A stretch of DNA of 64,000 nt, taken from assembly GCF_058153355.1 (NCBI RefSeq), contig NZ_CM177019.1; one strand, written 5' to 3'. Both the position numbers and the translations under genes were made by a program. A model generated the notes under the pieces. The model saw nothing but the letters and a program-made list of their open reading frames with translations. It had not been told where the DNA came from and searched no databases. Below are positions 51,847-57,451 of the stretch, one piece after another. Position 1 is the first letter of the stretch; every line of letters begins with the position of its first letter.

Positions 51847-52530
51847 ATGAAACTGTTGATTGTCGAAGATGAAAAGAAAACCGGAGAATACTTGACCAAA
51901 GGGTTAACCGAAGCCGGTTTTGTGGTCGATTTGGCCGACAACGGGCTGAATGGCTACCATCTGGCGATGACCGGAGATTATGACCTGATAATCCTCGATA
52001 TTATGCTGCCGGACGTGAACGGCTGGGATATCGTGCGCATGTTGCGCTCCGCCAATAAAGGGATGCCGATTCTGTTGCTTACCGCGCTTGGCACCATTGA
52101 ACATCGCGTCAAGGGGCTGGAGTTGGGGGCAGATGACTACCTGGTGAAACCGTTCGCTTTTGCTGAACTGCTGGCGCGGGTGCGGACTCTACTGCGTCGC
52201 GGGGCGGCGGTGATTATCGAAAGTCAGTTTCAGGTTGCCGATTTAATGGTTGATCTGGTCAGCCGCAAAGTCACCCGCAGCGGCACGCGCATCACTTTGA
52301 CCACAAAAGAATTTACCCTGCTGGAATTTTTCCTCCGCCATCAGGGCGAAGTGCTGCCCCGCTCGCTTATCGCCTCGCAGGTGTGGGACATGAATTTCGA
52401 CAGCGACACTAACGCCATTGATGTGGCGGTGAAGCGGCTGCGCGGCAAAATCGACAACGACTTTGAGCCAAAGCTAATTCAGACCGTGCGCGGCGTAGGC
52501 TATATGCTTGAGGTGCCGGATGGCCAGTAA
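51847..52530 (+). CDS. cusR: Copper-responsive OmpR-family response regulator
   Basis: 227-aa [19 protein letters not shown]... Confidence 0.95.
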
Positions 52531-53968
52531 GCCGTTTCAGCGCCCGTTTTCGCTGGCAACCCGCCTGACCTTTTTTATCAGCCTTGCCACCATTGCAGCG
52601 TTTTTCGTCTTTGCCTGGATCATGATCCACTCGGTAAAAGTGCATTTTGCCGAGCAGGATATTAATGATTTAAAAGAGATTAGCGCCACATTCAGGCGTG
52701 TTCTTAATCATCCCGAAGAGACACAAGCCCGACGCTTAATGACGCTGGAAGATATCGTCAGTGGTTATTCCAACGTGTTGATTTCTCTGACAGATAGCCA
52801 CGGCAAAACGGTGTATCACTCCCCCGGTGCGCCGGATATCCGCGAGTTTGCACGTGATGCCATACCCGATAAAGACGCTCGGAGCGGCGAGGTATATCTC
52901 CTTTCCGGCCCAACAAAGATGATGCCAGGCCACGGTCACGGGCATATGGAACACAGCAACTGGCGGATGATTAGCTTGCCGGTTGGCCCGCAGGTGGATG
53001 GCAAACCGATTTATACGCTCTACATCGCGCTGTCTATCGATTTTCATCTTCATTACATTAATGATTTGATGAATAAACTTATTATGACCGCATCGATCAT
53101 CAGCATCCTGATCGTCTTTATCGTGCTGCTGGCGGTACATAAAGGCCACGCGCCAATTCGCAGCGTCAGCCGTCAAATCCAGAACATTACCTCGAAAGAT
53201 CTCGACGTTCGCCTCGATCCACAGACCGTGCCGATTGAGCTGGAACAACTGGTACTGTCGTTCAACCATATGATCGAGCGTATTGAAGATGTCTTTACCC
53301 GCCAGTCCAATTTCTCAGCGGATATCGCTCACGAAATTCGTACGCCGATTACGAATCTTATAACGCAAACGGAAATTGCCCTCAGCCAGTCGCGCAGCCA
53401 GAAGGAGCTGGAAGATGTGCTCTACTCTAATCTCGAAGAGCTGACGCGAATGGCGAAAATGGTCAGCGATATGCTGTTTCTCGCCCAGGCCGATAACAAC
53501 CAGTTAATCCCCGAAAAGAAAATGCTCAACCTGGCGGATGAAGTCGGCAAAGTGTTCGATTTTTTCGAGGCATTAGCGGAAGATCGTGGCGTGGTGCTGC
53601 GGTTTGTTGGCGACGAATGTCAGGTTGCGGGCGATCCGCTGATGCTGCGTCGGGCGTTAAACAACCTGCTTTCTAATGCCTTGCGTTATACGCCACCCGG
53701 AGAGGCAATTTTAGTGCGCTGCCAGACGGTCGATCACCTGGTGCAAGTTACCGTCGAAAACCCTGGTACGCCCATTGCGCCTGAGCACTTACCGCGATTG
53801 TTTGACCGTTTCTACCGCGTTGATCCTTCCCGCCAGCGAAAAGGTGAAGGTAGCGGCATTGGGCTGGCGATAGTGAAATCAATTGTTGTCGCGCATAAAG
53901 GCACGGTTGCGGTAACGTCAGATGCGCGGGGGACAAGGTTTGTTATCGGGCTACCGGAGAGGGAGTGA
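52520..53968 (+). CDS. cusS: Copper/silver-sensing histidine kinase
   Basis: ORF 52508..53968; overlaps the cusR 3' end; HisKA H-box motif [11 protein letters not shown]. Confidence 0.9.
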
Positions 53969-54325
53969 TTGGTCAGATAATGCAGTGGATGTTAATTGAA
54001 TTGAGAATTAGCTATTTCGTCACGAGAAAAAGCGTAAAATCCGTTTCGTGCAGATGGTGAGTTTTATCAGGGTATGGCGGTAGCGCAACTGTCTTTGGAT
54101 AATATATGTGATATGAATACATACCCCTAACAACTTCACTAACTAAATACTTAGTTTAGTTATATTAATTTGCATAATACAAACTCATCACCACGATATG
54201 TCATATATTTATAGTCAGCAATCTGGATATATTATTATATAAATGCCATATGGAAATAAAAATTATTATTTAATTCAATATGTAAATTTTACTCTTAACT
54301 ATTTTCGCAGGATAAACCAGCCTCT

Positions 54326-54772
54326 ATGAATATGACTAAAAAAGAAGCATTAGCATTCCTTGCTCTAAATCAACCTATGCCTAATGATTATGACATCACT
54401 CAGGAACTTATCGATAAATATGACGACGTAAGACTTTATTTTTGTGCAAATCCTGCTGAAGAGGCCATACCGTTATTTTTACAATCCTTTGGGGAAGGTG
54501 ATGGCTTAGGAGTATATCAGTTGGTCGAAGATTTTTTGTACAAGTGTGATAAAAACATTGTAGCTTCAAATATAGCCAACATACTGGAAAATCCTCTGAC
54601 AATAAAAAGTGTCCGATATTGGTGTACATTATTAGCAATGGCTTTTCCCGATAACACCTTAATTAAAGGATTAAATATTTCTCTACAATCTGATGATGAA
54701 GATACCCGAGACATGGCTATGTTAAGTTTAAAGATGATTACAGAGGAATATAAAACATTTGAATTCCAATAA
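54326..54772 (+). CDS. Hypothetical acidic 148-aa protein in an AT-rich islet (function unknown)
   Basis: 447-bp ORF in DNA that is visibly very AT-rich; no signal peptide or TM segment; weak Shine-Dalgarno. Confidence 0.45.
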   Translation: MNMTKKEALAFLALNQPMPNDYDITQELIDKYDDVRLYFCANPAEEAIPLFLQSFGEGDGLGVYQLVEDFLYKCDKNIVASNIANILENPLTIKSVRYWCTLLAMAFPDNTLIKGLNISLQSDDEDTRDMAMLSLKMITEEYKTFEFQ

Positions 54773-55213
54773 TTCCCCCTTGCATAAAAGATCACCATCA
54801 TGACAAAAACACAAGCAAAGTTGCTTATTTATAAAGCATTTGTTATTTTAACGTTCATTATTTCCCGGTTGAATATTAAACTTAATTAATCTAAAGAGAA
54901 ATGAAGTTAGCCTTCCTGTACCCACAGCAACGCCGTCTTTTTGTTCAGCACGGGGAAAATGTTCTCCCCTGCTCACCTCCTCCAGGCACTTCCACAACAT
55001 GATGACCTGATCGGTTGCCGCCTATCCTCCTCACTAAGACCTTCACCTCCGCGCTTTTGCCTACATCCTGCACAATCGGCAACTTTTATAACCAGTGTAA
55101 AAATAACGTGCCGCAATAATCCTACCTATTAATGATAAAAAGCTGTCACAATTCATAAAAAACTTTAATATACGCCACCCTAAACATAACCAGCGTTAAT
55201 GTAAGGTTTTTGT

Positions 55214-57451
55214 GTGGACTGGCTTCTTGATGTTTTTGCAACCTGGCTATATGGCTTAAAAATAATCGCGATAACGTTAGCGGTCATCATGTTCATCAGC
55301 GGGCTGGACGATTTTTTTATTGATGTCGTCTACTGGGTACGCCGCATTAAACGCAAGTTGAGTGTTTATCGCCGCTACCCGCGAATGAGTTACCGCGAAC
55401 TGTATAAACCAGATGAAAAACCGTTAGCGATTATGGTTCCGGCGTGGAATGAAACGGGCGTCATCGGCAATATGGCCGAGCTGGCGGCGACCACGCTCGA
55501 CTATGAAAACTATCATATCTTTGTTGGCACCTACCCCAACGACCCAGATACTCAGCGTGATGTTGACGAAGTGTGCGCTCGCTTCCCAAACGTGCATAAG
55601 GTAGTCTGCGCGCGTCCTGGCCCCACCAGCAAAGCCGACTGCCTGAACAACGTGCTGGACGCCATCACCCAGTTTGAGCGTAGCGCCAATTTCGCTTTTG
55701 CTGGTTTTATTCTGCATGACGCCGAAGACGTAATTTCACCGATGGAATTGCGTCTGTTCAACTATCTGGTCGAGCGTAAAGATCTGATTCAGATCCCGGT
55801 ATACCCATTCGAACGCGAATGGACGCACTTCACCAGCATGACTTACATTGATGAGTTTTCAGAACTGCATGGCAAAGATGTTCCGGTGCGTGAAGCCCTC
55901 GCCGGACAGGTGCCCAGCGCAGGCGTCGGTACTTGTTTCAGCCGCCGCGCCGTGACCGCACTGTTAGCTGACGGTGACGGTATTGCTTTCGACGTGCAGA
56001 GTCTTACTGAAGATTACGACATTGGTTTCCGCCTGAAAGAAAAAGGTATGACGGAAATTTTTGTCCGTTTTCCGGTGGTGGACGAAGCCAAAGAACGCGA
56101 GCAGCGTAAATTTTTACAGCACGCGCGGACGTCAAACATGATCTGCGTGCGCGAATATTTCCCCGATACCTTTTCGACGGCGGTTCGACAAAAATCTCGC
56201 TGGATCATCGGCATTGTTTTCCAGGGCTTTAAAACCCATAAATGGACCTCCAGCCTGACGCTGAACTACTTTCTCTGGCGCGACCGCAAAGGGGCAATCA
56301 GTAACTTTGTCAGCTTCCTCGCGATGCTGGTGATGATCCAGCTTTTGCTGTTACTGGCGTATGAAAGTTTGTGGCCCGATGCCTGGCATTTCCTTTCTAT
56401 TTTCAGCGGCAGCACATGGTTAATGACCCTGCTGTGGCTAAACTTTGGTTTGATGGTTAACCGCATCGTGCAGCGGGTGATTTTTGTCACTGGCTACTAC
56501 GGTCTGACGCAGGGGCTGCTATCTGTCCTGCGTCTTTTCTGGGGCAACCTGATTAACTTTATGGCTAACTGGCGCGCATTAAAACAGGTACTTCAACATG
56601 GCGATCCACGTCGCGTGGCGTGGGATAAAACAACGCATGACTTCCCCAGCGTGACTGGCGATACCCGCTCGCTGCGCCCGTTAGGTCAAATTCTGCTGGA
56701 AAATCAGGTCATCACTGAAGAACAACTCGATACAGCACTGCGTAATCGCGTCGAAGGTCTACGCCTGGGCGGTTCAATGCTGATGCAGGGGCTGATTAGC
56801 GCCGAGCAACTGGCACAGGCGCTGGCAGAGCAAAACGGCGTGGCGTGGGAATCTATCGATGCCTGGCAGATCCCTTCTTCGCTGATTGCCGCGATGCCGG
56901 CCTCCGTGGCGCTGCATTATGCAGTACTGCCGCTGCGTCTGGAAAATGATGAGTTAATTGTCGGCAGTGAAGATGGTATTGACCCGGTTTCGCTGGCAGC
57001 CCTGACGCGTAAAGTCGGACGCAAAGTGCGTTACGTCATTGTTCTGCGGGGACAAATTGTCACGGGGTTACGTCACTGGTATGCACGCCGACGCGGTCAC
57101 GATCCGCGGGCAATGTTGTACAATGCGGTTCAGCATCAGTGGCTCACGGAACAGCAGGCCGGTGAAATCTGGCGGCAATATGTGCCGCATCAGTTCCTGT
57201 TCGCCGAAATACTGACCACGCTCGGTCATATTAATCGTTCAGCAATTAACGTGTTGTTATTGCGCCATGAACGCAGTTCTCTGCCGCTCGGCAAGTTTTT
57301 GGTCACCGAAGGCGTTATCAGCCAGGAAACGTTGGATCGCGTCCTGACAATTCAACGCGAATTACAAGTTTCGATGCAATCACTATTACTCAAAGCAGGT
57401 TTAAACACAGAACAGGTTGCGCAACTGGAGTCCGAAAATGAAGGAGAATAA
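55214..57451 (+). CDS. nfrB: Inner-membrane glycosyltransferase with C-terminal c-di-GMP-binding domain; phage N4 adsorption protein B
   Basis: 745-aa ORF MDWLLDVFATWLYGLK... (GTG start); matches NfrB. Confidence 0.9.
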   Translation: MDWLLDVFATWLYGLKIIAITLAVIMFISGLDDFFIDVVYWVRRIKRKLSVYRRYPRMSYRELYKPDEKPLAIMVPAWNETGVIGNMAELAATTLDYENYHIFVGTYPNDPDTQRDVDEVCARFPNVHKVVCARPGPTSKADCLNNVLDAITQFERSANFAFAGFILHDAEDVISPMELRLFNYLVERKDLIQIPVYPFEREWTHFTSMTYIDEFSELHGKDVPVREALAGQVPSAGVGTCFSRRAVTALLADGDGIAFDVQSLTEDYDIGFRLKEKGMTEIFVRFPVVDEAKEREQRKFLQHARTSNMICVREYFPDTFSTAVRQKSRWIIGIVFQGFKTHKWTSSLTLNYFLWRDRKGAISNFVSFLAMLVMIQLLLLLAYESLWPDAWHFLSIFSGSTWLMTLLWLNFGLMVNRIVQRVIFVTGYYGLTQGLLSVLRLFWGNLINFMANWRALKQVLQHGDPRRVAWDKTTHDFPSVTGDTRSLRPLGQILLENQVITEEQLDTALRNRVEGLRLGGSMLMQGLISAEQLAQALAEQNGVAWESIDAWQIPSSLIAAMPASVALHYAVLPLRLENDELIVGSEDGIDPVSLAALTRKVGRKVRYVIVLRGQIVTGLRHWYARRRGHDPRAMLYNAVQHQWLTEQQAGEIWRQYVPHQFLFAEILTTLGHINRSAINVLLLRHERSSLPLGKFLVTEGVISQETLDRVLTIQRELQVSMQSLLLKAGLNTEQVAQLESENEGE

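Follow-up and report, generated by a model that had tools for sequence, protein, structure and literature searches.

A HEAT-like open reading frame as a probable orphan Rhs immunity gene in the variable cusS-nfrB interval of Escherichia coli

The spacer between cusS and nfrB, at positions 53969-55213 of a 64,000-nucleotide stretch of DNA (the window; contig NZ_CM177019.1, assembly GCF_058153355.1), is 1,245 bp long and carries a 148-aa open reading frame (ORF), which is considered here as a probable orphan immunity gene of the polymorphic Rhs toxins. It is bounded by the end of the cusS ORF at 53968 and the GTG start codon of nfrB at 55214, and both flanks match annotated cusS and nfrB in E. 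coli genomes at >90% DNA identity. The features of the spacer and its flanks are as follows.

52508-53968, plus strand: cusS flank; the listed ORF runs from an upstream TTG, and annotated homologues have 482 aa.
54208-54235, plus strand: weak candidate for a sigma-70-like promoter, TTTATA-16-TATTAT (9/12), the sole match upstream of the ORF.
54311-54314, plus strand: AGGA, read from the sequence as a weak candidate for a Shine-Dalgarno site, 11 nt ahead of the ATG at 54326.
54326-54772, plus strand: 148-aa ORF with an ATG start; putative HEAT-like orphan immunity gene, conserved start probably at 54332.
55214-57451, plus strand: nfrB flank, encoding a glycosyltransferase activated by c-di-GMP (cyclic di-GMP), from the ORF list and DNA matches.

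The spacer and its open reading frame

The GC content of the spacer is 0.349, compared with 0.515 for cusS and 0.518 for nfrB, and in 300-bp windows the minimum range of 0.29-0.36 extends across 54050-54950. The ORF itself has a GC content of 0.336, and GC at its third codon positions is 0.275, against 0.588 in cusS and 0.578 in nfrB. A preliminary description of this DNA, made without database searches, had called the spacer far more AT-rich than its flanks and the ORF unlikely to have arisen by chance, and both statements hold, with the flanks at about 51% GC and the stop-to-stop frame of the ORF, 157 codons, matched in length in 4 of 2,000 dinucleotide-preserving shuffles of the spacer. The longest frame in these shuffles averaged 78 codons, with a standard deviation of 17. 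Two minus-strand ORFs of 76 and 94 aa overlap the 148-aa gene and were set aside as by-products of an AT-rich coding strand. When the spacer was scanned against Rfam at E<=1 there was no match, and no partner ORF with any family match was found in it that could be an adjoining small toxin gene.

The ORF product is acidic because its sequence holds 24 aspartate and glutamate residues against 12 lysine and arginine residues. At 146-148 aa it is free of any long hydrophobic segment, and its AlphaFold2 (AF2) model is a soluble all-helical repeat, in agreement with the earlier account of an acidic, soluble protein with neither signal peptide nor transmembrane helix. The third residue, Met3, is near-invariant in the family alignment described below, and it is at this residue that homologues begin to align. 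The ATG at 54332 is therefore favoured as the likelier start, giving a product of 146 aa.

Signals for expression of the window copy are few. The ribosome-binding site had been judged weak, and the only candidate is indeed the AGGA 11 nt before the ATG at 54326, with no Shine-Dalgarno sequence seen before the conserved ATG at 54332. Promoter-like matches in the region number two, fewer than the mean of 6.3 in shuffled sequence, so the match at 54208-54235 is no evidence of function. The scan for promoters and terminators found no terminator-like site between cusS and the ORF, and read-through from cusRS into the ORF is therefore conceivable. Expression of the window ORF may possibly come from cusRS read-through or from a weak AT-rich promoter. 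Of six toxin-linked homologues, four start in a 4-bp overlap with the toxin stop codon or at most ~2 nt behind it, an arrangement of translational coupling that is lost in the window.

A protein family linked to an Rhs toxin domain

The ORF had been said to belong to no named family, and searches of Pfam (even at E<=10), NCBIfam and PADLOC gave no match, to a housekeeping family or to any other. A PDB sequence search with the single ORF sequence likewise returned nothing meaningful. Relatives are nevertheless numerous. A word-indexed search gave 40 of them at 46-97% identity, in Escherichia, Citrobacter, Cronobacter, Klebsiella, Hafnia, Snodgrassella, Gilliamella, Vibrio and an actinomycete, and an exhaustive profile search gave 756 clusters at E<=1e-3 and 354 at E<=1e-10 (representatives at 50% identity), distributed over Proteobacteria, Firmicutes and Actinobacteria. 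Family members are annotated as 'hypothetical', occasionally as 'HEAT repeat domain-containing', and neither Pfam nor NCBIfam has a model for the family. In the family alignment (A1), 19 columns are invariant and the core motif reads SFGEGDGxGVYQLVED, and the hidden Markov model (HMM) built from it matches the window ORF with an E value of 2.4e-73. Most clusters are 165-175 aa in length, and a few have tandem copies of the domain. Four proteins of 327-435 aa (P0055, P0068, P0106, P0116) show two to three matched stretches of the immunity domain and may be tandem fusions of immunity modules.

The AF2 model of the ORF product has eight helices, with a mean confidence (predicted local distance difference test, pLDDT) of 92.3 and a predicted template modelling score (pTM) of 0.86. 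In a Foldseek comparison with the PDB, the top matches were almost all HEAT, alphaRep and armadillo repeat proteins, with template modelling (TM) scores of 0.45-0.57 and none at E<=0.001, and no solved immunity protein was among them. The A1 family profile matched alphaRep proteins at E 8e-10. Pfam HEAT_2 (PF13646) matched five of 27 family members, the best at 3.5e-12, and gave no match to the window ORF at E<=10. On the model, the window ORF product is a small HEAT-like alpha-solenoid.

The link of this family with a toxin comes from its genomic neighbourhoods. The Vibrio mangrovi homologue begins 2 bp beyond the stop codon of a gene for a 1,625-aa Rhs protein, itself preceded by two genes for DUF4123 adaptors of type VI secretion (T6SS). 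The homologue of Snodgrassella alvi has a 4-bp overlap with the end of an Rhs C-terminal fragment, inside an array of Rhs C-terminal domain (CT) and immunity cassettes. Past the DPxGL boundary, the Vibrio and Snodgrassella Rhs C-termini have in common a domain of ~115 aa (63% identity, tblastn). When the search was made from the side of this toxin CT, homologues were found on Rhs C-termini of Cronobacter, Yersinia, Apibacter and Clostridium and also behind PT-HINT domains, and such fusion to both Rhs cores and PT-HINT pre-toxin domains is the behaviour of a polymorphic toxin. Three loci were picked by their toxin CT, in Clostridium saccharobutylicum, Pseudomonas sp. and Yersinia entomophaga; in each, the gene that follows downstream belongs to the ORF family, with A1 HMM E values of 1e-58 to 1e-69, and neighbouring immunity genes, which served as controls, gave no score with this HMM. 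The gap between toxin gene and homologue is 2 bp in Vibrio, 1 bp in Pseudomonas, 2 bp in Yersinia and 96 bp in Clostridium.

The same toxin CT is also present within E. coli. In strain CREC-544, at L021:8801-9719 in the yeeO/tRNA-Asn island, it is followed by a homologue that overlaps it by 4 bp and is 69% identical to the window ORF. The Rhs gene of this strain is truncated by the insertion sequence (IS) IS3 and is frameshifted, yet the toxin domain is intact, and a further orphan Rhs-CT and immunity pair follows. In all, six of the six contexts linked to a toxin have the homologue on the strand of one specific Rhs C-terminal toxin domain, immediately downstream of it or overlapping it. In Gilliamella, Hafnia, the actinomycete and Escherichia, homologues lie instead in arrays beside genes of the Imm-NTF2, TriTu, Imm44, SUKH, SMI1/KNR4 and CdiI_N types, and Imm26, SUKH-3 and SUKH_5 are also among the immunity families that neighbour homologues. 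The Klebsiella aerogenes copy is solitary among metabolic genes and is uninformative on the partner.

The toxin CT, of ~115 aa, is marked by an invariant PHH..Q, T.N and H motif, in which H33, H34 and H58 are invariant, and was assigned to no family by Pfam, NCBIfam, PADLOC or PDB sequence and profile searches. The PHH motif had been considered as that of an HNH/EndoVII nuclease (AHH, LHH or WHH-like), and this is kept only as a lead, as no profile matched and the search by fold led to TseN instead. Acidovorax citrulli delivers TseN by its T6SS, and this effector is a deoxyribonuclease (DNase) in which H254 is essential for both toxicity and activity; it was described by its authors as a new effector class, and its immunity protein TsiN has an alpha/beta fold (PMC12574953). 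The predicted fold of the toxin CT is closest to that of TseN, at 14% identity and with no match at the level of sequence. Given this predicted link to a DNase, the cognate toxin is read, with moderate confidence, as a TseN-class nuclease that would use an unrelated, HEAT-like immunity protein, and DNase activity of the toxin is presumed on the same ground.

The cusS-nfrB interval across E. coli

The interval was compared across a set of 5,426 complete E. coli genomes, and numbered comparison loci (L) are cited where strains need to be told apart. In K-12 (L014) the site is a gap of 149 bp. The position between nfrB and cusS is 'locus 4' in a published table of Rhs positions that are conserved in E. 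coli and Shigella (Jackson et al. 2009, Table 3, PMC2935791), so the spacer can be regarded as what is left of an Rhs element. No Rhs core or YD-repeat sequence was found in the window spacer, and such sequence is present at the same site in AMSHJX01. The parts of the window that differ from the K-12 empty site are given here, none being assigned to a strand.

53948-55064: island relative to the K-12 empty site, an AT-rich remnant of Rhs 'locus 4'; homology to K-12 stops at 53947 and resumes at 55065.
53969-54149: left junction segment, 95-97% identical to L001, L004 and L003 and 86% identical to L002.
54839-55064: right island segment by nfrB, C-rich with a GC skew of about -0.29, 99.5% identical to L003 and 92% identical to L002.

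The interval is a variable island, a presence/absence-polymorphic Rhs locus. In AMSHJX01 (L016:22720-35107) the site holds vgrG, a DcrB-related chaperone gene, a gene for a 1,619-aa Rhs-type protein (annotated AHH) and an immunity gene, followed by IS3, small orphan ORFs, an RHS pseudogene fragment and ISEc1. This module shows the undecayed state of the locus. Homology of AMSHJX01 to the window begins at 54968, directly after ISEc1. Strain 118UI carries an HNH/EndoVII toxin fragment, WD40/BNR genes, a PAAR-like gene, a SUKH-3 gene and two copies of ISEc1, together with a homologue of the 148-aa ORF and a 142-aa gene, and ~150 genomes share with it the same ~92% match. In other strains the order is cusS, SMI1/KNR4, a 122-aa gene, the ORF and nfrB, and in further strains it is cusS, the ORF, a 142-aa gene, a 56-aa gene and nfrB. 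E. albertii has an equivalent array upstream of nfrB, in which the gene after the homologue has a CdiI_N immunity domain.

A gene of 142-145 aa after the ORF (L002:9556-9984, L003:10202-10630, L022:1810-2247) is common in Escherichia arrays, and it is the E. albertii copy of this gene that bears the CdiI_N domain. It is probably another orphan immunity gene, and it is absent from the window.

The window holds the most reduced state of the locus among those compared. Its spacer resembles L003 from cusS to ~54480 and L001 from 54326 onwards, and it is a recombinant of two array types, with the crossover inside the 5' third of the ORF common to both. The crossover at this point has removed the neighbours of the ORF from both parental array types. 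At least 80% of the region 53900-55300 in one piece was found in none of the 5,426 genomes, and the exact window protein is present on 142 E. coli contigs, always under the name 'hypothetical protein'. The left junction segment is common to strains with immunity arrays and absent both from K-12 and from the full vgrG-Rhs island of L016. The left island junction falls within the last codons of cusS, and the tail of CusS accordingly varies with the state of the island, ending in FVITLPA in K-12, FVIGLPERE in the window and L003, and FVIMLPERE in AMSHJX01. A tblastn search with both toxin CTs found no remnant of them, either in the window spacer or at loci L001-L004 of E. coli, and the window copy is therefore an orphan, a recognised state of immunity genes.

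The preliminary description had taken the spacer for an acquired AT-rich islet. Acquisition is supported, but the spacer is less aptly described as a fresh insertion than as all that remains of an Rhs/T6SS cargo island in decay. Probable silencing by H-NS had been suggested as well; xenogeneic DNA silenced in this way is both AT-rich and bound by H-NS, and of these two marks the AT-richness is seen here (GC 0.35 against 0.51).

A C-rich stretch at 54800-55250, upstream of nfrB, has a GC skew of about -0.29 and is common to island-bearing strains and, from 55065, partly to K-12. Neither an ORF nor an RNA family was found to account for it.

Function of the orphan copy and related systems

The reading frame is intact in all E. 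coli and E. albertii copies examined and is kept in other genera, a point on which the preliminary description had made its proposal depend. Pairwise Nei-Gojobori estimates of dN/dS (the ratio of non-synonymous to synonymous substitution rates) among E. coli and E. albertii copies are 0.11-0.21. The window copy differs from that of E. albertii (L022) by 27 synonymous and 12 non-synonymous changes (binomial p 5.5e-11), and from that of L004 by 16 synonymous and 8 non-synonymous changes (binomial p 9.5e-7). The synonymous excess is significant, and the orphan copies in E. coli and E. albertii are under purifying selection.

The ORF is most readily explained as the gene of an immunity protein against a polymorphic Rhs toxin, retained here as an orphan with no toxin beside it, and the probability of this reading is put at about 0.8. 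The data themselves show a genuine and conserved gene, a family tied to one toxin domain, the history of the locus, and orphan copies that evolve under purifying selection. That the ORF belongs to an Rhs-toxin immunity family is very likely indeed, and a current protective function of the window copy is favoured with less assurance. An 'orphan immunity or anti-toxin-type' protein had been guessed from the start. The immunity part of this guess is supported by the toxin-linked contexts, the immunity arrays, the polymorphic Rhs locus and the kept frame, and the antitoxin part is abandoned, at least as regards a type II antitoxin, as the spacer has no adjoining small toxin gene with a family match and the ORF has no Pfam or NCBIfam domain.

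Several observations weigh against the reading as an orphan immunity gene or against parts of it. Related DNA is present in only 180 of the 5,426 complete genomes (~3%), and truncated variants exist in E. albertii and E. coli (P0024, 96 aa, and P0028, 108 aa), so the gene is often lost. The toxin-linked allele of E. coli shares only 69% identity with the window ORF, and immunity is in most cases specific to an allele. In E. albertii, a search for a toxin beside an allele of the window's own group (>90% identity) turned up only another orphan array. Of five AF2 models of the toxin, a single confident one (pLDDT 89, against ~55 for the rest) is the basis of its fold assignment. The window copy has no translationally coupled context, and its ribosome-binding site and single promoter match are weak. 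In addition, part of the synonymous excess could stem from toxin-linked ancestors.

Some of these points would also be expected of a non-functional relic, that is, an ORF of the immunity family that is silent in this strain, is intact only because toxin and neighbours were recently deleted, and confers nothing. The poor expression signals, the lack of any terminator near the ORF in the promoter/terminator scan, the absence of the gene from ~97% of complete E. coli genomes, the truncated variants and the visible decay of the locus through IS elements, an RHS pseudogene and deletions are all in keeping with this explanation. It is considered unlikely, since the frame is unbroken at all the loci examined in E. 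coli and E. albertii, orphan copies from one and the same locus show a significant synonymous excess with dN/dS of 0.11-0.21 and p values down to 5.5e-11, the exact protein recurs on 142 contigs, and the ORF is the one gene that was kept when both neighbouring array segments were lost. A HEAT-repeat protein whose role is unrelated to toxins, such as a cus or nfr adaptor or regulator, a type II antitoxin or an anti-phage component, is disfavoured and highly improbable. HEAT-like repeats are generic protein-binding modules, nfrBA is the adsorption locus of phage N4, which makes a phage role imaginable, and the K. aerogenes copy stands alone among metabolic genes. Against this, PADLOC, Pfam and NCBIfam gave no match, the window has no adjoining toxin or partner gene, K-12 and most E. 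coli lack the gene yet retain cus and nfr, and homologues in other genera are tied to Rhs CTs and immunity arrays rather than to cus or nfr.

In this account the locus is full in some strains, with a T6SS cargo module of vgrG, chaperone, Rhs and immunity genes, and is reduced in others to arrays of small immunity genes that remain from successive C-terminal displacements and deletions, and in the window a crossover inside the common ORF between two array types has left a single gene. The HEAT-like solenoid, a small cytoplasmic protein, would by analogy with known immunity proteins bind and block the ~115-aa C-terminal toxin domain of the cognate Rhs effector, and physical binding and neutralisation of this toxin by the ORF product are supposed on that analogy. 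A toxin injected by the T6SS of a competitor would then be neutralised in the cytoplasm, and the carrier strain would be protected without the cost of the weapon, as in 'acquired interbacterial defence'. A further-reaching proposal combines two statements, namely that the HEAT-like family and the 'PHH' toxin form an undescribed but widespread pair (a TseN-class fold against an immunity fold unrelated to TsiN), and that Escherichia actively maintains the orphan, which would protect it on its own from the Rhs toxins of other enterobacteria such as Cronobacter, Yersinia or other E. coli. In combination these are put forward tentatively, at slightly below even odds.

Orphan immunity genes at Rhs, CDI (contact-dependent inhibition) and T6SS loci and islets of acquired interbacterial defence (AID) are well documented, for example SAIDI-1 of Salmonella Typhi (PMC7400221) and the AID clusters of Bacteroides cited there. 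The window resembles these islets in being a small AT-rich islet in a gap of the core genome with an immunity-type gene but no matching toxin, in having homologues downstream of T6SS/Rhs toxins elsewhere, and in its strain-variable presence. It differs from them in holding a single gene and not an array, in that its protective role is putative, and in its site, which is a decayed resident Rhs position (locus 4) and not a dedicated mobile defence cluster. The Rhs elements of E. coli (Jackson et al. 2009, PMC2935791) occupy the same position, a site that in other strains carries vgrG, an Rhs core, CT/immunity cassettes that have been displaced, and ISEc1 (the H-repeat). Unlike such elements with C-terminal displacement, the window has no Rhs core, CT fragment or IS and retains one immunity gene only.

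The Imm-HEAT immunity proteins were named by Zhang et al. (2012) and are paired with Ntox34 or Tox-REase-7 (PMC3482391). The present family is like them in comprising RHS-associated, all-alpha immunity proteins of polymorphic toxins with HEAT-type repeats, although here the toxin matches no Pfam toxin family and the window protein falls below the Pfam HEAT_2 threshold. Two differences separate the pair from TseN-TsiN (PDB 9J9W, PMC12574953): delivery would be by an Rhs trunk, in contrast to the FIX/NoLS N-terminus of TseN, and the predicted immunity partner is a HEAT-like solenoid, in contrast to the alpha/beta fold of TsiN.

The current understanding is unchanged by these results, as orphan immunity genes at Rhs loci are already well established. 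Only three points are new: a family so far called 'hypothetical' is paired with one particular Rhs toxin domain that had no annotation, this domain is given a predicted fold link to TseN, and a decay series is described at cusS-nfrB. A family with no Pfam or NCBIfam model of its own thereby gains a likely function and a testable partner, and the variable gap between cusS and nfrB in E. coli is explained as stages in the decay of Rhs locus 4. If true, the pairing would be a further case of unrelated immunity proteins serving one toxin fold, and the ORF would be a candidate marker of resistance to T6SS attack.

Two minor observations concern the flanking genes. In one human-gut metagenome contig (L028:4889-7117) nfrB is split into ORFs of 390 and 339 aa and is apparently a pseudogene. 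In CP027520 (L029:1155-2633), CusS is called at 492 aa, not 482.
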